From Gemmatimonadota bacterium (lineage in GTDB: Bacteria > Gemmatimonadota > Gemmatimonadetes > Palauibacterales > Palauibacteraceae), in the NCBI GenBank assembly GCA_963666735.1, contig OY762926.1:1280001-1344000 (forward strand): 64,000 nt of DNA. The letters are read 5' to 3'. Under the pieces are notes generated by a model, which did no database searches, was not told the DNA's origin, and saw only the letters and a list, made by a program, of their open reading frames with translations. The stretch's first letter is position 1; each line of letters begins with the position of its first letter. The translations under genes and the position numbers were made by a program. Shown piece by piece: positions 14,302 to 50,525 of this stretch.

Positions 14302-15095
14302 CCGGAACTTCCTTCCCCGGAGGTCCGCTCCGCCTCCCGCTCCTGCCGGCGCCGCCGGAGCACGCGGGTCATGACCACCGATATCTCGTAGAGCAGCATC
14401 ATCGGGACCATCATCGCGAGCATCGTGTAGGGGTCGGCCGGCGTGAGGAACGCCGAGACCACCGCCATCACGACGATCGCGTGCCGCCGGTACTTCGCGA
14501 GCCCCTCCGGCGTCACGATCCCGAGCAGCGAGAGAAAAACGAGAACGACCGGAAGCTCGAAGATGATCCCGAACGCCAGCATCAATCTGAGGGCGAAGGT
14601 CAGATACTCGTTGACCATGATGAGGGGAATGAGTTGATCATCGAAGAAGGTCAGGAGAATCCTGAGCCCGAGCGGGAGCACCAGGAAGTACGCCATCATG
14701 ATCCCGGCGACGAATAGGAGCGTTCCGGCAGCGATCGCGGGGATCGCGAACTTGCGCTCGTTCTCGTAGAGGGCCGGGGCGAGAAAGGCCCACGCCTGCC
14801 AGGCGAGATAGGGAAAGACGGCGACGAGGGCCACGATGAAGCTGAGTTTGAGAATAATGATGACGGGAGTCGTCGGGTTCGAGAAATTCAAGCTCCCGCC
14901 CGGGAGGAACTCGATGATCGGCCGTTGGACGATGCTCAGCACGTCCCACTGCGTGACGGCCACGAGCCCGACGACCATGCCGACAAGAAGCGCGAGGAGC
15001 GCTCGGATCAGGCGAGTGCGAAGCTCATCCAGGTGATCCAGGAAGGGCATCTCCGCCTGATCGGTCGCACCCGGGGTCTGTGGCCGCAGCCTCAT
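14298..15095 (-). CDS. tatC: Twin-arginine translocase TatC
   Basis: EMPFLDHLDELRTRLI, FLAPALYENE, FELPV, LTPADP. Confidence 0.96.
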   Translation of the reverse strand: MRLRPQTPGATDQAEMPFLDHLDELRTRLIRALLALLVGMVVGLVAVTQWDVLSIVQRPIIEFLPGGSLNFSNPTTPVIIILKLSFIVALVAVFPYLAWQAWAFLAPALYENERKFAIPAIAAGTLLFVAGIMMAYFLVLPLGLRILLTFFDDQLIPLIMVNEYLTFALRLMLAFGIIFELPVVLVFLSLLGIVTPEGLAKYRRHAIVVMAVVSAFLTPADPYTMLAMMVPMMLLYEISVVMTRVLRRRRQEREAERTSGEGSSG

Positions 15096-15604
15096 CCGCT
15101 CTGGTCGCCTCCTGCTGAGAACAGATCGACCTGCCCCGCCGCACTGTGCCCGGCGCGTCGCAGCAGTTGTCGCACTTCCTCCATGAACTCCGTGGTGTCC
15201 TGGAAGTTCCGGTACACGCTGGCGAAACGCACGTACGCAACCTGGTCCATGGCGCGGAGCCGCTCCATCACGAGTTCTCCCAGCCTGAGGCTGGCCACAT
15301 CCCGCTGGTCCGCGGCCGCCAACTGTTCCTCGACTTCGTCAACGAGAGACTCTATATCGCGGTTCGATACGGGTCGCTTCGCGCAGGCCACGCGGATGGA
15401 GGCGAGGAGCTTCCCGCGATCGTAGGTCTCCGAGCCGCCATCCTTCTTCATGACGAGCAGGGGCTCCTCCTCGACCTGCTCGTACGTCGTGAAGCGTTCG
15501 CCGCAGGAGAGGCACTCGCGCCGGCGGCGGGTGGCCCGGCCGCCGCGACTCGTGCGGGAGTCGACGACCCGCGCCTCCAGGTGGTTGCAGCGGGGGCACT
15601 GCAC
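15092..15604 (-). CDS. nrdR: Transcriptional repressor NrdR
   Basis: Zn ribbon CPRC...VVDSR...RRRRECLSCGERFTTYE, ATP cone, DQVAYVRFASVYRNF. Confidence 0.97.
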   Translation of the reverse strand: MQCPRCNHLEARVVDSRTSRGGRATRRRRECLSCGERFTTYEQVEEEPLLVMKKDGGSETYDRGKLLASIRVACAKRPVSNRDIESLVDEVEEQLAAADQRDVASLRLGELVMERLRAMDQVAYVRFASVYRNFQDTTEFMEEVRQLLRRAGHSAAGQVDLFSAGGDQSG

Positions 15605-39328: not shown

Positions 39329-39610
39329 TTAGAGCTTCAGGTCGCCGCCGGGATCGCGGCGTCTCAGGCGCTCCAGCACCTCTTCGGCCGCCCGCATCCG
39401 GGAGCGGCGCGCCTCCTCGTCCAATACGGCCGCCGCCCACTCCGGCCGCCCGTCCTGCTCCGGCGCCCGCAGCACGGACCCTTCACGGCTTCCGGGGGGC
39501 AGCACGCTGGTGGGCACATCCTCGGTATGCTCGTCCTCGTCGCGTATGAGCAGGGCGATCGAGCCCTCCACCCGGTCGACGACCCAGAGACGCTCCCTAC
39601 GCTCGTTCAA
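39329..39610 (-). CDS. DUF3006-like small protein
   Basis: WVVDRVEGSIALL...LPPGSREGSVL...LDEEARRSR; TTG start overlaps the upstream stop (TTGA). Confidence 0.75.
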   Translation of the reverse strand: MNERRERLWVVDRVEGSIALLIRDEDEHTEDVPTSVLPPGSREGSVLRAPEQDGRPEWAAAVLDEEARRSRMRAAEEVLERLRRRDPGGDLKL

Positions 39611-40977
39611 TAGTCGAACACGACCACGACCGCTCCCGTGCCGTCGTAGAGCGTCGCGGTGTCGCCGTTGTTGTTCCACACGGCCTGCCGCCGGCCCATG
39701 TAGTAGCGGGCGCCATCGGCGCGTCCGGAACCCGTGTGCACAACGAGTTGTTCGCCGGCCCCGAGTACGGCGCCCGCCGGGAACCGGAAGCATTGGTTGG
39801 CCCGGTCGCACAGCGACCAGCCGCCGATCGGCCGGTCGCCGGACTCGAGGCTTCGGATCACGGCGTACTCCCCGTTCGGATTCTCGTGATCGTTGCCGGG
39901 CGCATCGGCGTGTACCCGGAGTTGGAGCCGCACATCGCCGGGTCCGGCGGGAGGATCCATCGGCGCCGGAGCCGCCACGGGCGGGCGCCCGCGCGGGCCG
40001 TCCCCCGCCCCGCCGCGCAGCGCGACCTCCCCGCCGAACGACACGTCGTAGTCGCCGCTCTCGCGCCCCCGCACCGACACATGGCCGTGCCGATCCGTGC
40101 GGAACACGGTGGCCCCGGACGCCTCGTAGGCCCGGAGGGCGGCCGGCCGCGGGTGCCCGTAGCCGTTGTTGCGTCCCACCGAGATGACGACGACCCGAGG
40201 TCTGGCGGCGTTCAGAAACTCCCATGTGAAGCCGTTGTCGCTGCCGTGGTGCGGCGCCTTGAGCAGCGTCGCCCCGGTGACGGCCCCCCGGTTCACCAGG
40301 TGCGTGAGCTGCCGCACTTCGGAATCGCCGCTCAGGAAAGCCCGGAACTCTCCGAACCGCACGAGCAGACTCACCGAGCGGTCGTTGTGTTCCGTGGTTC
40401 CGCGAGGAAGCAGCGGCAGGACGTCGATCTCGACTTCTCCGAGCGCAAGCGTCCGCGGCGAGGCTTCCAGGTAGGTGATCTCCGGACGCGCCTCGAGGGC
40501 GGCGAGCAGCCGCCGGTAGGTCTGCGTCGCGTGCGGCTCGCCGTTGTCCATGTAGAACCGGACCGGGAACGCCGCGATGACGCCGGCCATGCCGCCAATG
40601 TGATCTGCATGCGGGTGGGTCGCGACGAGCAGATCGATCTCGGTCACGCCGAACCGGCGCAGGAGCGAAACGATGTCGCCTCGTCCCGCGTCCACGAGCG
40701 CCGTCCGGCCATCCGCCGTCTGGATGAGGACCGCATCGGCCTGTCCGACGTCGAGAAACGTGATGCGCAGCACGGAGTCCGCCGCCTCTTCGGACAGCGA
40801 CGCGACCGCACCGGCGAGTGGTGTCTCAAGGCCGGCGGCTGCCTCGTACGCGGGGGCGGATGCCGCAGAAACGGTGACCGAGGCACAAACCGCCAGAAAG
40901 ACCGCAGCCACCGCGCCGACCCTCGCGACGCGCCCGATCACCTGCGCTACACCGTCTCGAATTATCCCGCGCGACAT
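39607..40977 (-). CDS. Secreted ComEC/Rec2-type metallo-beta-lactamase-fold nuclease with C-terminal lamin-tail domain
   Basis: FLDVGQADA, HPHADHIGG, LSGD, KAPHHGS, YGHP, RTDRHG; LTD motifs NGEY, VWNNNGDTATLYD. Confidence 0.88.
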   Translation of the reverse strand: MSRGIIRDGVAQVIGRVARVGAVAAVFLAVCASVTVSAASAPAYEAAAGLETPLAGAVASLSEEAADSVLRITFLDVGQADAVLIQTADGRTALVDAGRGDIVSLLRRFGVTEIDLLVATHPHADHIGGMAGVIAAFPVRFYMDNGEPHATQTYRRLLAALEARPEITYLEASPRTLALGEVEIDVLPLLPRGTTEHNDRSVSLLVRFGEFRAFLSGDSEVRQLTHLVNRGAVTGATLLKAPHHGSDNGFTWEFLNAARPRVVVISVGRNNGYGHPRPAALRAYEASGATVFRTDRHGHVSVRGRESGDYDVSFGGEVALRGGAGDGPRGRPPVAAPAPMDPPAGPGDVRLQLRVHADAPGNDHENPNGEYAVIRSLESGDRPIGGWSLCDRANQCFRFPAGAVLGAGEQLVVHTGSGRADGARYYMGRRQAVWNNNGDTATLYDGTGAVVVVFDY

Positions 40978-41187
40978 GACTCACCTACATGACGCCCCCA
41001 ACGCGATGTCGCAAGAACCTCGCCGCAGTCTCATCGGACAGGGACGATCTCATCCGAGGGTTCCAGAGCGGCGTCACGTGAAGGCATTTCGGATGTTCAG
41101 CACGGGCACGGGGCGGCACAGCTCACTGAGACAGGGTGCCTTCGATCCGCTCGCTGCGATGCACGCCTCAGCACGCGACGTTTTCGC

Positions 41188-41216
41188 TTGACCACCACAT
41201 GTTGTGTAGCTATCAT
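41188..41216 (+). promoter_or_regulatory. Sigma70-type promoter of the CBASS operon
   Basis: TTGACC (41188-93), 17-nt spacer, TATCAT (41211-16). Confidence 0.75.
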
Positions 41217-41239
41217 TTTCGGTCCACCAGATGTTGTGG
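41192..41239. promoter_or_regulatory. Tandem NrdR-box-like operators
   Basis: CCACCACATGTTGTGT (41192-207) and CCACCAGATGTTGTGG (41224-239), 32 bp apart, resembling the NrdR consensus acaCwAtATaTwGtgt. Confidence 0.72.
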
Positions 41240-41384
41240 GGGGCAGTGATATCGTCTGGAACGAAGCCGGTAGAAGGAACGCGGGTTCCCCCTCGTTGAA
41301 CCGCAATCCCCTTCAGCGGTTCAGGTCCCAGTTTTTCTTGGTCGGGCTGAGGCTACGTGTCAGCCCAAACGAGGAGGTTTGCCA

Positions 41385-42497
41385 TTGTCAACGGTTCTCG
41401 ACTCGCACGCCACCCATCTCAGTTTCCTGCTGGACGGGATCTGCCGTGCGATCCAGCTGACCGCGACCCAGCAGGAGGACGCCAAGCGAAAGTACGAAGC
41501 GGTGTCGAAGTGGCTTGCGGACCCCCACAGCGCGCTACAGCGATTCAATCCGCAGGTCTTTCCTCAGGGATCCGTCGCGATCGGTACCACAACGAAGCCT
41601 GTGGGGCGTGAGGACCACGATGTCGACTCCGTCGCGCTGCTCCACGGGAGCTTCGATGCGATGGAACTCTACGAGTTAGTCCATGATCGGCTCAGGGAGC
41701 ACGCGGATTACCGCCGGATCCTCGAGCCGAAGAAGCGCTGCCTTCGGCTGAACTACGCGGGAGACATTCATCTCGACGTGCTGCCAGCGCAGCCCCGTCG
41801 GTGGATCACCGAAACCGGACTGCTCGTGCCCGACCGGGAACTGCAGGACTGGTCTCCCAGCGATCCAAAGGGCTTCATCGCCTGGTTTGGCCACATCTCC
41901 CGCCGTCCATACCGGGAAATCAGACTCGGCGTCGAACCACTCCCCGAGCCCGAGGACGCCGACGCCAAGAGCCCGTTGCAGCGTGCCGTTCAGCTGCTGA
42001 AGCGTCGGCGCGACGTGTTCTTCAACGGCAATCAGGATGCCGCGCGGTCCATCGTCCTCACCACGCTCGCGGCCCGATCGCACGGAGGAGAACGAACTGA
42101 AATCGAAGCCCTCACGGCAGCACTCGATTCCATGGCCTCCGAGATATCGGCCAGCCCGGGAATCCTGGTGGTTCTAAACCCGACGCTACCCGACGAGAAT
42201 TTCGGCGATGGCTGGGATGCGAACTCATACGCGCAGTTCGAGCGGTTCGTGCGCAGTTTCCGGGACGAGGTCAGCAAGCTCCAAAGACTCTCTGGCCCCG
42301 ATCTTACGGCAGAACTGAGCCGGATGTTCGGCGAGCGGCCGGCGACCCGAGCCGCCGAGCAGTGGGGCGAGCACCTACGCCGCCAACGTGAAGCCAAGCG
42401 TCTGCACGTTAGTAGCATCGGCCTAGTGACAGCTGCCGGACGCGGGACACAACCCGTGCCGCCACACAACTTCTACGGCGGTGCGAGTAACCCGTGA
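41385..42497 (+). CDS. CBASS CD-NTase (cGAS/DncV-like; probably clade G)
   Basis: PQGSVAIGTT, HDVD, HLDVLPA, WSPSDPKGF, LQRAVQLLKRRRD, C-terminal HNFYGG; TTG start 7 nt after GAGGAGG (alternative TTG at 41379). Confidence 0.9.
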   Translation: MSTVLDSHATHLSFLLDGICRAIQLTATQQEDAKRKYEAVSKWLADPHSALQRFNPQVFPQGSVAIGTTTKPVGREDHDVDSVALLHGSFDAMELYELVHDRLREHADYRRILEPKKRCLRLNYAGDIHLDVLPAQPRRWITETGLLVPDRELQDWSPSDPKGFIAWFGHISRRPYREIRLGVEPLPEPEDADAKSPLQRAVQLLKRRRDVFFNGNQDAARSIVLTTLAARSHGGERTEIEALTAALDSMASEISASPGILVVLNPTLPDENFGDGWDANSYAQFERFVRSFRDEVSKLQRLSGPDLTAELSRMFGERPATRAAEQWGEHLRRQREAKRLHVSSIGLVTAAGRGTQPVPPHNFYGGASNP

Positions 42498-42946
42498 GGC
42501 GACGTCCGCCACGGTTCCGGCGCCGTAGTGTGGGATTGCACGAGCAGCGCGCCGCGATGCTGTATCGGTGGCCAGACTTCACATCCCATGTCGACGCGGG
42601 TCGTCTTACGTGCGAAGGGCGACTCCGTCCGACTCCGCTCGGTGCAAACTACCGTGTCCGAGTGCGATACACGGTGGGCCGACGCCCTCGAGCGTCGGTG
42701 CTCGATCCCCGGCTCCGTCGCCGAGAACAACAGCCACACGAACCGATCCCTCACACGTTCAATGATCGGTTTCCCGGCCGGGAGGAACCGTGCCTGCACT
42801 ACCGGGGCGAGTTTCGGTCGGATCGGCTGCTCGCCGGCACGATTCTACCCTGGTTCGCCGAATGGCTCGCTCACTACGAGATATGGCGCGCAACCGGAGT
42901 CTGGACGGGAGGGGGCGTGGAACACCGGAACGGAGCAAAGCACTGA
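42494..42946 (+). CDS. CBASS E2-like protein (type II short)
   Basis: GRLRPTPLGANYRVRVRY, IPH, PCL (candidate catalytic Cys), WLAHYEIWRATGVWTGGGVEH; GTGA overlap with the CD-NTase. Confidence 0.82.
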   Translation: MRRRPPRFRRRSVGLHEQRAAMLYRWPDFTSHVDAGRLTCEGRLRPTPLGANYRVRVRYTVGRRPRASVLDPRLRRREQQPHEPIPHTFNDRFPGREEPCLHYRGEFRSDRLLAGTILPWFAEWLAHYEIWRATGVWTGGGVEHRNGAKH

Positions 42947-43956
42947 GCGATCGGGCCTCGGGGCGTACTCGTCCGTTCGAACCGATTGGGGACCGTCGAT
43001 TCCGAATCCTGAGTCTCGACGGCGGTGGCATCAAAGGCACGTTCACGGCGTCCGTCTTGGCGACCATCGAGGAGATGACCGAGAAGAATGTAGCCGAGCA
43101 CTTCGACCTAGTCGTCGGGACTTCCACCGGCGGGATCATCGCACTGGCTCTGGGTCTCGGTCTCCCGGCCCACCGAATTCGGGATCTCTATGTGAAGGAC
43201 GGTCCGCAGATCTTCGGAGCGACGGGTGTTCGCGGATCGTTTCGCAGATTCTTCCGGGCGAAGCACGATTCGAGACGGCTGCGGGAGGCGCTCAATGGGG
43301 AGTTTGGCGCTTGCCGATTCGGTGAGTCCACGACTCGCTTGGTGATTCCCTCGTTCAATGTCGTGTCCGGCGATGTACATCTGTTCAAGACCTCCCATCA
43401 TCCTCGCTTCAAGCGTGACTATCTCTGGAAGGTGAAGGACGTGGCGATGGCCACCTCCGCAGCCCCGACATACTTCTCGATCTTCCATCATGAGGCATCC
43501 GGTCTCCGGCTCGTTGATGGCGGGGTGTGGGCGAACAATCCGGTCGCGGTTGGCGTGAACGAGGCAATCGGCGTGCTCAGGTGCGCACTCGATGGCATCG
43601 AAGTCCTCAGCATTGGCACGACGGGGGCTCCGTTTCACATCAAGCCGAAGAAGCGACATGGCGGCCTACTCGGATGGGGGCGTAGTTCGATCCGGCTTCT
43701 GATGGAGGCCCAAACGCAGGGCATGGCTGGACTCGCGCACGCAATCACACAGCATGATCAGCGGCTACTCCGAGTCGATCCGACGGTCGCGCCGGGGCGA
43801 TTCTCCTTGGACGATCCGAAGCAGATCTCGGAACTCAGGGCGGTTGGGGAGGAGGCGGCGAGACACGCGGAGCGGCGAGTCAATGAACGCTTCCTTGACG
43901 AGCCCGCCCCGGCCTTCGAGCCCTATCGAGTTCTTTCGACCGAGGCCCGAAGCTGA
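42943..43956 (+). CDS. capV: CBASS patatin-like phospholipase effector (CapV-like)
   Basis: LSLDGGGIKG, GTSTGG, LFKTSH, TSAAPTYF, DGGVWANNP; probable CTG start overlapping the E2 stop. Confidence 0.87.
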   Translation: MSDRASGRTRPFEPIGDRRFRILSLDGGGIKGTFTASVLATIEEMTEKNVAEHFDLVVGTSTGGIIALALGLGLPAHRIRDLYVKDGPQIFGATGVRGSFRRFFRAKHDSRRLREALNGEFGACRFGESTTRLVIPSFNVVSGDVHLFKTSHHPRFKRDYLWKVKDVAMATSAAPTYFSIFHHEASGLRLVDGGVWANNPVAVGVNEAIGVLRCALDGIEVLSIGTTGAPFHIKPKKRHGGLLGWGRSSIRLLMEAQTQGMAGLAHAITQHDQRLLRVDPTVAPGRFSLDDPKQISELRAVGEEAARHAERRVNERFLDEPAPAFEPYRVLSTEARS

Positions 43957-44038
43957 TCGGGCCAGACGTTCAGACGACCTGTATGCCGATCGTGGCGAGG
44001 ATGTCTTGGATGTAGGTGTTCCGGTCCTCTTGAAAGAA

Positions 44039-45430
44039 GGTTCTTCGCTGTTTCAGGTGGGTAGTTTGAAGTCGAGTTTGCCGCACACGAGATAGGCGAT
44101 GGTGATGAAGTTCTCGGCGGTTCGATAGCCCCGGGCCCTGGCCTTGGCGGCCTGGACGAGCGAGTTGATGCCCTCGATCATGCCGTTGGTGATCCTCGAG
44201 CGGAACCAGAGGAGGATGCCGTCCCGGTGCTTCCCGATCGTCTTCGCCGCGTCGATGACGGGTTGGAGATCGCTCTTGCCGGCCCGGAAACACCATCTCT
44301 CGAGGTAGACGCCGGCCAGCCGGGGCGGGAGATCCCAGAACGCCTCGAAGGCGAGCTTGAACCGGTAGGCGAGAGCCGTCTTCAGGTTCCGCCGCGACGG
44401 ATCGAGCAGTTCGCCGATCCACTCGCGCTGGGAGGCGGTGAGCCCGCCGCGCCTCTTGAGCCACAGGTAGCGGGTGCGGTTCAGCTCGGGGCGCTCCCTG
44501 CGCTCGGCCCGCCTAACCTCGTCCACCGCCCGGTTCATGAGCCGCTGGACGTGGAAACGGTCGAAGGTGATCCCGGCCTCCGGGAACGCCTCCCGCGCCC
44601 CCTTCATGTACGCCGCCGACATGTCCATGCAGAGATCCCGGACGCTCCCGGCCCGGCCCCCGTGCGCCTCGAGGTCCTCCCGGAACAGGCTCACGACCGA
44701 GGCGTCGCGCCCCGGCGTCGCGTACAGCAGCCGCGAACGGTCCAGGTCGGCGAACAGCGTGATGTAGTCGTGGCCCCGCCGGCACGCCGTCTCGTCCACG
44801 GCCACCGCGCGCACCGACGAGAAGTCCGCCTCCGCCCGCGCCCGTCCCACGTGGCGCTTCAGAAGCCGCCACAGCCGCGTGTCGTGCTCGCCCACCAGCC
44901 GGGCCACCGCCCTGACCGGCATCTCCCGCGCCAGGGCCACCACCAGAGCCTCGAACCACAGCGTGAAGCCCGAACCCGGCTCCGCCCACGGCACCCTCGC
45001 CCGCCTCACTCCGCACGCCGGACACCTCACCCTCGGCACCCGCGCGTGCAGGTAGGCCCGGTGCTGAAAGAAGTCCAGGTGCCGCCAGCGCTTCGGGCTC
45101 GAGTCGTGCGCCTTGCAGCCCCCGCGCCCACACGAGCGGCAGTCGAACGTCCCGCCCGGGCTCGAAGTCCAGATGCAGGTCCAAGCGGCGCTCCGCCGCG
45201 TCGAACTCCGTCCGCTTCACCCGCCACGGCCACTCGAGTCCCAGCGCCCGCTCGAACAGTCCCCGCTCCGCCATGCCGCCGTCCCGCCCGGCCGCTCCGA
45301 GTCCCCCAACCGCCCCCGGCCGGCCCCGGAGACCACCGGGCGCGTCACGGACCCGCGAGGGCACCCGACGGCCACCGCCGCCGGCCCCGCCACTCTACCA
45401 CCCCTCATCCACCCCGAACAGCGAAGAGCC
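44039..45430 (-). mobile_element. ISL3-family insertion sequence
   Basis: IRs GGTTCTTCGCTGTTT / GGCTCTTCGCTGTTC; 8-bp target duplication TGAAAGAA (44031-38 and 45431-38). Confidence 0.93.
44053..45274 (-). pseudogene. ISL3 transposase with a +1 frameshift near 45155
   Basis: N-terminal MAERGLFERALGL...FEPG in one frame; FDCRSCG...RCPACG, VDETA, CMDMS, FDRFH, TNGMIEGIN in the other. Confidence 0.88.
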
Positions 45431-45841
45431 TGAAAGAAGGTGTTCCGCTTGCTGAGACCCACCTTGGTGTCGCCCCAGAGGTTTCTTATCTCCGCGTAAG
45501 TCGTTACCGACACGATGAAAAAATCCAGCGTGGCGGTGGGGTCGCCGAGGCGCCGCTCGATCCCCTTGATCTTCTGGTGGAACCGGACCTTCGGGCCGTA
45601 AGGCGCTTCTTGACGCAGCCCCTTCGGATCGATGAACGCGATCCGCTGGCGGCCTTCGCCGGCGGTCCAAAGGACGAAATCCGGGTGGAAGTTCGAGGTC
45701 TCGAAGAAGCTCACGCCGCGCCTGCAACTCATGTTCCGCATGAGCTGAAGGTCCGTGCTTTCGAGTCGATCTCGGTTATCCGCGCAGAACCGCTCCAGAT
45801 CTTGGACGAGCGTGTACTCCCCGCGTTTAGGTGGAGGGGGC

Positions 45842-46104
45842 GGCACGATGTCGTCGGCGATCCCTCCTTCGGCGACGCCATCCTCGACCGCCTCCTCAAC
45901 AACGCTCACAGGATCACCCTCAAGGGCGCTTCCATGACGAGGCTCTACGACTCGACGAAGGCCGGTACAAGCCGGTAGACTCCAACCCTCGAGCCCGACA
46001 CCCCGGCCCCGTCATGACCCTCCGCTCCTCCAAGGTGATCGGCATGCGTCGGAATCACCGATTCGGCTTGCCGGAATCGGTGGTCGGCATCGTCGGAATA
46101 CGCA
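45842..46104 (+). mobile_element. IS21-family right-end remnant (istB 3' fragment plus IR)
   Basis: GDPSFGDAILDRLLNNAHRITLKGASM* followed by three tandem TCGGC...CGGAAT repeats ending GGAATACGCA. Confidence 0.82.
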
Positions 46105-47228: not shown

Positions 47229-50200
47229 TCATGAAGCGGGCACGCCGATGGCCGTGAGGATGTCACTGATGTAGGTGGCGCGATCCTCCTGGAAGAAGAT
47301 GTTACGCTTGGCAAGATCCGTCTTGTTCTCGCTCCACAGGTTCTTGAGGTCGGCGAACGACGTGACCGAGACGATGCACGAGTCCAACGTGACGGTGGGG
47401 TCGCCAAGCCGCCGTTCAATCTCTTTGATCTTCTCATGGAACCGGACCTTTGGGCCGTGCGGCGGCTCCTGCCTCATCCCCTTCGGATCGATGAACGCAA
47501 TGCGCTGGCAGCCCCTCCCCGTCGCCCAGAGGATGAAATCCGGATGGAAGTTGGAGGCCTCGAAGAAACTCAGACCGCGCCCGCGGCTCATGTTCCGCAT
47601 AAGATGAAGATTTATGCCATCCAGTCGGTCTCGGTTGTCCGCACAGAACCGCTCCAGATCCTGAACGAAGGTGTACTCGCCGCAGTTGAGTGGAGCAGGC
47701 GATACCCTAGCCAAGCTGTTGTTCGTCGTCGAAAGGAGAGGTCGGTAGAGATGGCGATCAAATGATATCGTCCTCACGTCGCCGTGTTGGTGCGGGTCGC
47801 GACGGCCGGCTTCCGCGTCTTCGATGAGCTGATCGATGGCCGCTGCAATCTCCGCGTCGGCCTCCGCATCTCCAGATCTGCCAATCTCGATCTCGTACCC
47901 CGTCTTGAGGGCCTCTTGGATGGCCACCGCCGGATAGCTGGGGTCGTCATAGTCCAGATCGCGATACTCGAGGTGTCGTGCCTCCCACGCCTGGCGACTC
48001 GCCGCGTAGAAGCGCGCCGCGTACTTCTTGAGTAGAGCGAGAGTGATGTCGCGCCAGACGCGGACCTTCCCGTAGTCGTCGAATTCCAGCTCGAGCGCAG
48101 GAATGCGGAGCCGATACCAGCTGGAGCCCACCTCGCCGCTGTCGTCAAGAAGCGCACGAATCGCTTCTTGGGATACGGTCAGATTGTGCCAACCCCGCTC
48201 CACCTTATGGCGTTGCAGGTCGATAAATAGTTCGTCCAAGTCGAGATGTTCGACGTGCCTGCGCGTGAGCAGCCCTTGGTGCGGCGCCTCTCGCACGGAC
48301 TCTCCTCCGGCTCCTTCTGAGCGGCGCACACGAATCTTCGGATACCAATCGACGACGACCGGATGCCGCAACAGGTAGGTATCAACTTCGGGGGAAGCAC
48401 CGGCACCCGGGGGCCGCAGTATGGCGTTCGGGCCGATCCTCGTGAAGGCGCTCGCGGGGTCCGTTCCCGCCACGGTTTCCTTGAGGCGGATCACCTTCAG
48501 CGCGGGTGCAGGGAGCGGTTCCAGTGTGACGGGTACGAAGCGGGGCTTCCGCTCGGTGTCAAGCCCTTCCTCCTCCAGAATGGCTCTGAACTGCGCCATG
48601 TAGTTGGCCCGTACGCCGAAGACTTGGAGAGTTTCCAAGGGGTTCAGGGAAACCGGCGGCTTTCCGAGAGCAGGCCCGAGCCGGGAACTACGCTTCAACG
48701 TCCAGTCCCGACCCTTGAGCCGGACGCCGCGGCCGAACAACTGAATGATCGTCGCCCCCTCGGTGCTCCCCACACGCATAAGGCCCATGGAACTAACGCG
48801 CCAGCTGTTCCAACCTTCGTTGAACTTCTTCGCGCCCACGAGGAGGTTCACCGTCGAATCGTCGTTGTTGATGCCGTGGAAGAGGGAGCCGGCGAACTGC
48901 CCGTCCACAACACGGAAACCCAACCCATCGAGGTGCTTGGCCAGCTTCGCGGGATCCCCCACGTTGATGACGCCGAACGGCTCATTGTCTCCGACGGTCA
49001 GCGCCAATTCTCCCTGTGCGCCCTCAAGGCGCGCGATGTGAAGCGATCCGCCGTCCGGAGCGTTGAAGAGGAGTTGGAGGGTCTCATCATAGACTGCATC
49101 CGCCGACAAGCCCTTCGACTTGAGCGCGACGAACTGCCCCTTGAACAGATCTTTCCCTTCGCTCGCGACCAGCCCGTCTGCCAGTATCTCGCGGATGCGG
49201 CTGACCACCGAAACGCGGTCCGATACGTAGTTGGCCAAGAACCCTAGTATATCCGCGATATCTGAGGCTTCCTTCGTGCTGAACCCGGCCACAACCCGGC
49301 TGCCGACGAACACCCACAGGGGGCGTTCAAGGTTGTACGGTCGCAGGGCAGAGCCACCCTCGCGGAAGAGGTGCTGCTGCTGAAAGAACGTTAGCAGCGC
49401 GGCGGTCAGGTACTTCGTGCGCCAAAGCTCGTTGCCGCGCTCCTGGCCCGGTTTTTCCTCCAGATTGAAGATCTTGAAGTCCTTGCCAAAGCCATCGTCG
49501 TGGAACCAGCGATACGAGTAATCGAACAGCGTCGCGCGGGCGTAACGGTCCGTCAGATCCCTGTTCCCCTTGACGGCCTGGGCAAAGGTCGCGGAGTACT
49601 CGAACGAGAACCCGTCGGCGCACAACTCGTCCCGCCTCCGAATCCACGCACCTGCCCTGCCCGACGAGGCCCCCCGGTGCCCCTCGTCAACGAGGACGAG
49701 GTTGTTGCCCTCGAACGCCTCGACCGGAACTGTCTTCTCGCCCCTACCGGCATCCCTGTCGTTCTCGTCCCGAAGCTTGTGCACATCCAGCACCTCGACC
49801 ACGGCCCCCGACAACAGACTGCCGTTCCTGTTGAACAATTCGGCGTTGATTCCGGCCGCTCGAAACTCCCGGATATGCTGCCGGGAGAGGCCCTCGTTCG
49901 GCGTAAGAAGGATCATGCGGTTCAGCGTGTGGATACGCCCGCCGGCCTTGAGGTGCCGCCGGTACTGGAGGATGTTGGCGTGCATGAGCAGCGTCTTGCC
50001 ACTGCCCGTCGCCATCTGGAACGCCACCTTGTTGAGTTGCGTGGCCGGATCCCCGTCCGGGTTGAACGCCGCGACTCGCTCGGCCTCCGGCAGAGATGCA
50101 TTGAACTGCTCCGCGTGGGACGCGAGTTCCGCTAGCAGCCCCGCCGGGTCCTCGAAGTACCGATCCAAGTAGATCTCCGTGAAGAGCAGCGACAGGTACT

Positions 50201-50525
50201 GGAAGTACTTCCACTTCAGCTCCGGCTCGCCTCGCTTGATACGCGGACGGTTAAGCCGTTGCGTGACTCCGACGATTGTCTGGTCATGCTCCAAGAGCCG
50301 GTCGTCCGGGAGCAAGGATCGCTGTTGCTCGGGTACATGCAGGCGCAGTGCTCGGTGCAGGCGGTGCACGTTGTCGGCATCCAATCCCTCAAGCGCCTCG
50401 TCTCGTAGATTGGCGGCCAACTGGTCGAAGGTCTCGCAACCAAACAGGCCAAGCAGCCACCGGTGGACGACGAGCTTGCGCGAGAAGGGGAGACGCGGCC
50501 TGGTCACGCGCCGTCCAGGCGTCAA
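47229..50525 (-). CDS. res: Type III restriction-modification Res subunit (SF2 helicase plus PD-(D/E)xK nuclease)
   Basis: MATGSGKT, VDEGH, YSATF, EGW, QLFGRGVRL, FHPDF...FIDPKG. Confidence 0.92.
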   Translation of the reverse strand: MTPGRRVTRPRLPFSRKLVVHRWLLGLFGCETFDQLAANLRDEALEGLDADNVHRLHRALRLHVPEQQRSLLPDDRLLEHDQTIVGVTQRLNRPRIKRGEPELKWKYFQYLSLLFTEIYLDRYFEDPAGLLAELASHAEQFNASLPEAERVAAFNPDGDPATQLNKVAFQMATGSGKTLLMHANILQYRRHLKAGGRIHTLNRMILLTPNEGLSRQHIREFRAAGINAELFNRNGSLLSGAVVEVLDVHKLRDENDRDAGRGEKTVPVEAFEGNNLVLVDEGHRGASSGRAGAWIRRRDELCADGFSFEYSATFAQAVKGNRDLTDRYARATLFDYSYRWFHDDGFGKDFKIFNLEEKPGQERGNELWRTKYLTAALLTFFQQQHLFREGGSALRPYNLERPLWVFVGSRVVAGFSTKEASDIADILGFLANYVSDRVSVVSRIREILADGLVASEGKDLFKGQFVALKSKGLSADAVYDETLQLLFNAPDGGSLHIARLEGAQGELALTVGDNEPFGVINVGDPAKLAKHLDGLGFRVVDGQFAGSLFHGINNDDSTVNLLVGAKKFNEGWNSWRVSSMGLMRVGSTEGATIIQLFGRGVRLKGRDWTLKRSSRLGPALGKPPVSLNPLETLQVFGVRANYMAQFRAILEEEGLDTERKPRFVPVTLEPLPAPALKVIRLKETVAGTDPASAFTRIGPNAILRPPGAGASPEVDTYLLRHPVVVDWYPKIRVRRSEGAGGESVREAPHQGLLTRRHVEHLDLDELFIDLQRHKVERGWHNLTVSQEAIRALLDDSGEVGSSWYRLRIPALELEFDDYGKVRVWRDITLALLKKYAARFYAASRQAWEARHLEYRDLDYDDPSYPAVAIQEALKTGYEIEIGRSGDAEADAEIAAAIDQLIEDAEAGRRDPHQHGDVRTISFDRHLYRPLLSTTNNSLARVSPAPLNCGEYTFVQDLERFCADNRDRLDGINLHLMRNMSRGRGLSFFEASNFHPDFILWATGRGCQRIAFIDPKGMRQEPPHGPKVRFHEKIKEIERRLGDPTVTLDSCIVSVTSFADLKNLWSENKTDLAKRNIFFQEDRATYISDILTAIGVPAS

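Follow-up and report, generated by a model that had tools for sequence, protein, structure and literature searches.

How cell-killing immune operons stay quiet until they are needed is an open question, and the regulators known so far cover few loci and mostly sense DNA damage. A 64,000-nt window of contig OY762926.1 from a Gemmatimonadota bacterium (positions 1,280,001 to 1,344,000) raises it anew: here an operon of the cyclic oligonucleotide-based antiphage signalling system (CBASS) lies behind a promoter with two predicted boxes for NrdR, the repressor of ribonucleotide reductase (RNR) genes. We regard the paired boxes as well-supported NrdR operators on the CBASS promoter, because they match those of the host RNR promoter in score and geometry, keep the bases C4 and G13, and recur before other defence operons. 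With a probability of roughly 65%, we read the arrangement as a selected, NrdR-gated promoter at which NrdR would repress and a drain of deoxyadenosine triphosphate (dATP) during replication or infection would lift the repression.

A CBASS promoter with paired NrdR boxes

The initial annotation had described a near-consensus sigma70 promoter and two 16-bp palindromes 32 bp apart; the hexamers, the 17-nt spacer and all sequences and coordinates between 41188 and 41239 agree with that description (Table 1). Counted from start to start, the boxes are 32 bp apart and leave a 16-bp spacer, which is three-turn spacing. Both contain C4 and G13, bases that NrdR reads (PMC9110341; positions mapped from its 57-bp fragment). 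A start site is predicted near 41223 from the -10 hexamer, and the overlap of the boxes with the polymerase site and this start is judged by consensus. The element at 41188-41216 is the sole promoter-like site in 40000-45000 (0.4 +/- 0.5 in shuffled sequence). The predicted leader has no Rfam match, no unusual fold (z -1.14) and no terminator-like site on the plus strand, and no DnaA-box-like motif occurs in 40901-41500.

Table 1 Features of the CBASS locus, its flanks and the predicted regulator gene, in window coordinates.
Feature	Coordinates	Strand	Details
nrdR, predicted regulator	15092..15604	-	unlinked core gene; Zn ribbon and ATP cone; intact
Metallo-beta-lactamase and lamin-tail gene	39607..40977	-	left flank, outside the system
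-35 hexamer TTGACC	41188..41193	+	box 1 begins with its final two bases; hexamer and register as at the host RNR promoter
Predicted NrdR box 1, CCACCACATGTTGTGT	41192..41207		over the -35 end and spacer; 21.6 bits, genome rank 2
-10 hexamer TATCAT	41211..41216	+	17 nt after the -35; identical hexamer at the host RNR promoter
Predicted 5' leader	41223..41384	+	~160 nt; GAGGAGG ribosome-binding site at 41371-41377
Predicted NrdR box 2, CCACCAGATGTTGTGG	41224..41239		over the predicted start site; 18.5 bits, genome rank 5
CD-NTase, CdnG type	41385..42497	+	370 aa; best solved relative SmCdnG 8hsb_A, E 1e-35
Stand-alone E2	42494..42946	+	150 aa; PADLOC E2, E 6e-35; 8hsb_B, E 5e-10; start overlaps the CD-NTase stop
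Patatin phospholipase effector	42883..43956	+	PADLOC CBASS phospholipase effector, E 6e-102; PF01734
ISL3 transposase	44053..45039	-	right flank; then a defence island (PLD protein, type III restriction-modification, others)

The promoter element is real and not an assembly artefact. A contig from a separate study covers 41050-41686 with zero differences, and two diverged strains from other studies (runs X7 and X9; ~7-12% different) keep the order of flank, promoter and operon. None of the six indels listed for these strains (at 41173, 41181, 41240, 41242, 41249 and 41336) falls within 41188-41239; the conservation of the boxes in X7 and X9 is judged from indels only, and run X10 has no coverage of the site. 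In run X7, two contigs join exactly over box 2 (41212-41241), a branch point that may represent a variant or a second copy of the stretch in the sample.

Comparison with the host ribonucleotide reductase promoter

We scored the boxes with a matrix of 32 distinct boxes from the RNR promoters of 28 relatives (training range 11.0-24.7 bits; the genome itself and one truncated locus were excluded). Among all 16-mers of the 3.98-Mb genome, the host RNR boxes take ranks 1 and 4 (23.2 and 18.5 bits) and the CBASS boxes ranks 2 and 5, so the score against nrd promoters on which the initial annotation had staked its proposal came out in its favor. The third-ranked box (C1:1201820) is single, lies inside a coding frame and was taken as chance. 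As in-phase pairs, the RNR promoter scores 41.7 bits and the CBASS promoter 40.1, with the next unrelated pair at 15.9; a pair of at least 13 bits occurs in 2 of 13259 300-bp windows, those of the RNR and CBASS promoters only, and no pair in the genome has four-turn spacing. A profile built from 23 RNR promoters, the CBASS site excluded, recovers the CBASS site at E 6e-8. With these ranks and background counts, and with independent contigs that bridge promoter and gene, a chance match or an assembly artefact can be dismissed for practical purposes.

The likeness extends to architecture. At the host RNR promoter, two boxes likewise lie 32 bp apart, with the -35 abutting box 1 and box 2 over the start, and 27 of 31 bases across the -35, box 1 and the -10 are identical to those of the CBASS promoter. 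The two operators differ at seven box positions, all outside the 12 near-invariant ones. The resemblance ends at the edges of the element (~50-70 bases), beyond which there is no remnant of an RNR leader or coding sequence. Outside the boxes, the CBASS promoter is nearest to RNR promoters of its own genus, with 21-23 of 40 flank and spacer positions shared versus 10-21 for most others, a modest hint that the promoter was captured.

The initial annotation had itself allowed that the region might be the relic promoter of a displaced nrd gene, a decaying leftover of the RNR regulon that does not control CBASS. The strong likeness to the genus RNR promoter is what one would expect of such a relic. 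The genome, however, contains a single RNR match; from its barrel, all-alpha and TSCPD domains we read it as class II (there is no class III match in the genome), and this gene and its operator are intact 109 kb from the CBASS operon. Behind the RNR promoter, RNR, a small ORF (open reading frame) and two genes that we take, from sequence motifs rather than a family scan, to be ispG and pyruvate kinase stand intact in one run (C1:1424164-1430377), the latter two without boxes of their own; therefore nothing was displaced locally. The short extent of the likeness, the key positions free of decay, the arrangement kept in diverged strains and the lack of any other promoter-like site before the operon also speak against a relic, which we consider improbable.

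A palindrome of this kind might instead be read by another regulator, such as an island-encoded or stress repressor. CBASS operons often carry repressors of their own (CapW, CapH/CapP), and the ORF scan took in part of the island. Yet what the palindromes resemble is the RNR operator of the host itself, three-turn spacing included, and the genome (68% GC, 94.4% complete) yielded no WYL-family gene, nor was a helix-turn-helix domain seen near the operon in the main genes and the 26 of 61 candidate ORFs scanned, in line with the initial annotation, which had seen no CapW or CapH/CapP-type gene next to the operon. We judge this alternative very improbable. NrdR itself is encoded within the window, as had been noted from the DNA; the gene lies on the minus strand with its domains intact, and the protein keeps D15, R17, R12, R26-29 and R37, the DNA-contacting residues named in PMC9110341.

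The operon, its island and paired boxes elsewhere

From its sequence, the operon is a complete CdnG-E2-patatin CBASS of the E2-CBASS type. In the CD-NTase (cGAS/DncV-like nucleotidyltransferase), the GS motif and three Asp are invariant among 32 homologues and the C-terminus carries an FYG motif; the CdnG-type label rests on the best solved relative rather than on a clade tree. Translation most likely starts at TTG 41385, 7 nt after GAGGAGG. Cys100 of the E2 aligns with SmE2 Cys101, and no E1 or JAB gene occurs in the operon. The patatin start is uncertain, with a first in-frame start at 42790 and an ATG at 42883.

One congener shares the left flank to ~41017 and then continues into a different gene without boxes; therefore the promoter would have arrived with the island. 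A BLAST search of 40700-41420 against 35 congeners matched only the flanking gene. Five relatives of the CD-NTase at 73-89% identity exist as proteins, but close relatives were found neither in 113 other genomes of the family (G064 gave a broken match and G010 a weak one) nor, except for pieces in G680, among 300 genomes from the family to which G406 belongs. On the right, a fragment at 45217-45909 that resembles the C-terminus of the type III restriction subunit (47229-50525) adjoins the ISL3 transposase, apparently a partial duplication within the island. The host looks sponge-associated, the best sequencing run being labelled sponge metagenome; a protein that clusters with an 83% relative bears the name Candidatus Palauibacter sp.

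To follow the boxes across related loci, we used 165 CD-NTase loci fetched by alignment-based searches (a single-protein search of contigs gave none). Within 300 bp upstream, an in-phase pair of at least 20 bits occurs in 2 of the 138 distinct loci whose contigs reach that far, versus 4 of 2459 control windows (p 0.037); three of the four control matches sat just past the window, directly upstream of a CD-NTase. With a 450-bp window, chosen after the matches were known, the counts are 5 of 135 loci versus 1 of 1582 control windows. No pair occurs at either of two off-phase spacings, and each of the five scores was reached by 0-1 of 2000 shuffles; the boxed loci fall into at least four lineages, L183 and L187 being near kin. 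On a tree of 149 proteins (L065 left out; L066 and L151 represented by L152), the boxed state requires at least four separate gains or losses. With few boxed loci and these changes on the tree, the operator is sporadic and, judged from these sequences, has been gained or lost repeatedly; the notion that the boxes might travel with homologous CBASS loci thus failed for most of them. Single boxes without a partner were not counted (L182, 15.8 bits; L300, 17.3; L110, 13.2; L283, 20.3; L448, 13.0). The box at L065 was dropped as a co-traveller of this CBASS, as the leader that holds it also precedes other cargo. A motif that we take to be DnaA-box-like, TGTGGAAAA, adjoins the NrdR boxes at L183:582-592 and L187:1707-1717 and at RNR promoters such as L001.

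Beyond CD-NTases, the profile of 23 RNR promoters matched at least 107 of 114 family genomes; because it misses the RNR operators of other families and the site in G014, these are minimum figures. Of its matches, 40 regions were fetched, and in these, pairs precede RNR, ispG, pyruvate kinase and one DUF5343 gene. Among the sites examined off RNR and ispG in 36 genomes of the genus were the CBASS site, DUF5343 genes in G043 and G041, a DUF1587/DUF1595 gene in G042 and a single box by parA in G001; four of the five accessory paired sites in the genus precede defence genes. In G043, PDC-M34A, HmaA, HmaB, HEC-01A, HEC-05 and HmaC follow a boxed promoter, TTGACC-17-TATAGT, whose box 1 overlies the -10 (L294, G043:C37:15000-34999). 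G014 has the same boxed DUF5343-Hma arrangement, and in G041 the promoter precedes the same first gene before the contig end cuts the island. At L294, L461 and L296, the consensus boxed promoter heads DUF5343 (PDC-M34A), a second small gene and the Hma system with embedded HEC-01A and HEC-05; downstream of that Hma island, a capH/capP-like pair precedes a patatin CBASS. Across the phylum, a pair precedes 3 of 15 DUF5343 loci, two of them in congeners and one in G346, which is from another family (16.4 bits), versus 0 of 130 control windows. Among 14 other SMODS loci of the class, L447, with an unrelated CD-NTase and NucC, has a pair of 28.1 bits and L450 a borderline one of 13.3 bits; between the weak pair and the CD-NTase start at L450, a tRNA-like sequence with a long variable arm lies on the minus strand (L450:2060-2160).

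Of 53 genomes in the genus of G406, five matched an exact single-box pattern, all at one leader (L464-L468, alignment A4); it sits behind the end or remnant of an MmeI-type gene and carries a promoter, a box 1 that is weak and a box 2 that is strong. Its cargo changes: E2-CBASS, an AbiJ-like locus, or an unnamed gene followed by a fusion of E2, E1, JAB and patatin, seen in two genomes and, in a third, cut off by the contig end behind the first gene. At L470:4998-9563 and L471:4918-9483, the unnamed gene encodes 396 aa and the fusion 1125 aa, with no CD-NTase seen in the region. An nrdR gene is present in all five boxed hosts tested. Because kin have these boxed sites in common, the sites amount to a few events rather than to independent samples.

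These comparisons bear on a further reading, in which the cassette landed behind, or copied, a strong RNR-type host promoter; dampening by NrdR would then be real and would lower the cost of a toxic operon and tie it to growth, with no sensing of infection. Such capture would fit the likeness to own-genus RNR promoters outside the boxes, the scatter of boxed promoters over the CD-NTase tree and before non-defence genes as well, and the hotspot-like leader in the genus of G406. Against it, the accessory paired sites of the genus lie mostly before defence genes, in the proportion given above, and the promoters of DUF5343, L183/L187, L066 and L447 place their boxes differently relative to the -35 and -10; the boxed promoters are therefore not copies of one promoter. 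We hold incidental capture, the chief rival, to be unlikely, at somewhat better than one chance in five, and prefer the selected, NrdR-gated promoter.

Several boxed sites lie outside defence loci or lack a partner. At L297:4607-4654 (G042:C61), a weaker pair (10.1/20.5) precedes the DUF1587/DUF1595 gene, which is not a defence gene. Across the family, pairs occur before two further arrangements, in which a small ORF stands with ispG or with pyruvate kinase (L241, L244, L245, L249, L250, L252, L262 and others). At a contig end, a type I restriction-modification operon has a single strong box (21.7 bits) upstream (L473:9465, G406:C393), and a further single box (20.3 bits) lies between divergent parA and rep-like genes on a plasmid-like contig (L298:7973, G001:C255). 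In viral contigs, 37 of 107 matches to a -35-plus-box pattern have an in-phase partner, and of 27 neighbouring ORFs scanned, 6 encode terminase or portal proteins (some being kin), which suggests that phages read the same cue as host defence promoters. Tandem boxes stand beside terminase or portal genes at L349, L350, L357, L360, L390 and L393, and before UDP-glucose dehydrogenase at L334 and L409.

Nucleotide pools as a possible cue for immunity

ATP-loaded NrdR cannot bind DNA, and with dATP plus ATP or ADP it forms a tetramer on two boxes three turns apart that blocks the promoter (PMC9110341, PMC12176259). Spacers of 15-17 bp repress, with both boxes required (PMC12051234); the 16-bp spacer of the CBASS site falls in this range. 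Known RNR operators (S. coelicolor nrdRJ and nrdAB; E. coli nrdAB, nrdHIEF and nrdDG; P. aeruginosa) resemble the CBASS site in that a pair of 16-bp palindromes, separated by 15-16 bp and with C4/G13 conserved, covers the polymerase site (PMC9110341, PMC12176259, PMC12051234), whereas the CBASS site precedes not an RNR gene, the usual NrdR target, but an anti-phage operon. Non-RNR genes that have NrdR boxes, for example dnaA and topA, are described as carrying single boxes, no non-RNR gene of P. aeruginosa is reported with more than one, and in E. coli and P. aeruginosa boxes and differential expression coincide only at RNR operons (bioRxiv 10.1101/2025.03.28.645925).

The operon, for its part, shares with E2-CBASS (SmCdnG-SmE2, PDB 8hsb; PMC12948482) a CdnG-type cyclase with a C-terminal Gly motif, a stand-alone E2 with the aligned Cys, the lack of E1 and JAB, and an effector; the sole difference is the promoter. 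Dedicated regulators of CBASS and defence-island promoters (CapW/BrxR, CapH with CapP, CapK with CapS, RptR) also repress until a stress cue lifts the repression. Their genes lie next to the operons they control, and their cue is mostly DNA damage or single-stranded DNA, whereas here an unlinked core gene would read nucleotide pools and the cassette would bring only an operator of ~50 bp. Operator and operon thus each appear to be of a known kind, and what would be new is their link. The initial annotation knew of no description of NrdR as a CBASS regulator; we likewise found no report of NrdR control of any defence system in the literature searched, which lay outside regulon databases, supplements and most subscription journals. 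One review mentions an nrdR insertion among phage-resistant E. coli mutants, an unrelated mention.

In the proposed mechanism, the operon would be transcribed from the sigma-70 promoter at 41188-41216, and host NrdR would repress it as it does the RNR gene, a dATP/ATP-loaded tetramer sitting on both boxes, over the start site and the end of the -35. Whenever DNA synthesis uses precursors faster than they are supplied, as in fast growth, repair or replication of a phage genome, dATP would fall and NrdR would release the promoter; CdnG, E2 and patatin would then accumulate, so that the cell-killing system would be armed when a phage can replicate and kept low otherwise. Selection would keep the operator, which defence cassettes would have gained several times. 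We infer binding at the CBASS site, the transcript and its induction by infection. That low dATP would bring about induction during infection draws on one case: in S. pneumoniae lytically infected by phage SpSL1, operons with NrdR sites, including one non-RNR operon of unknown function, are the most upregulated host genes (PMC6755750). The available text of that study names no defence gene under NrdR, and its link is by NrdR sites rather than by a test of nrdR.

Several points weigh against this mechanism. Infection could raise dATP, and so tighten repression, where the phage breaks down host DNA or encodes an RNR of its own. Most comparable loci lack a pair: 130 of 135 related CD-NTase loci, 12 of 15 DUF5343 loci and 12 of 14 other SMODS loci of the class, the latter including the host's own second, unrelated CD-NTase (L453, G000:C1:2977248-2977715). 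The wider window was a post hoc choice, and the 300-bp counts given above show a smaller excess. The leader in the genus of G406 has a weak box 1 (-0.6 to 6.2 bits), but box 1 at the RNR promoter there is just as weak (4.0). NrdR pairs in the family are found before genes outside defence too (ispG, pyruvate kinase and one DUF1587/DUF1595 gene), which makes for a loose regulon. Finally, the probability of 0.023 that all seven box differences would miss the near-invariant positions if random is partly circular, as the site was noticed for fitting the consensus.

The use of the same paired sites as at RNR, together with their recurrence before several defence operons, suggests that a drain on DNA precursors turns immunity on in some bacteria. 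A broader proposal, which we hold tentatively and at somewhat less than even odds, is that NrdR may sense infection for bacterial immunity in general, a role so far unrecognised: cassettes of unrelated kinds (E2-CBASS, NucC CBASS, Hma islands, E2-E1-JAB-patatin and AbiJ-like) in several phyla would repeatedly have acquired a 50-bp operator tied to the host's dATP gauge, phages with paired boxes before terminase or portal genes would read the same cue, and box-bearing phage DNA could titrate NrdR off the defence promoter. If this is true, a housekeeping nucleotide sensor would provide a cue tied directly to phage replication; no dedicated gene would be needed, and searches for neighbouring regulators would therefore have missed such control. 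The NrdR regulon, described as RNR-specific, would then widen to paired operators on defence genes.

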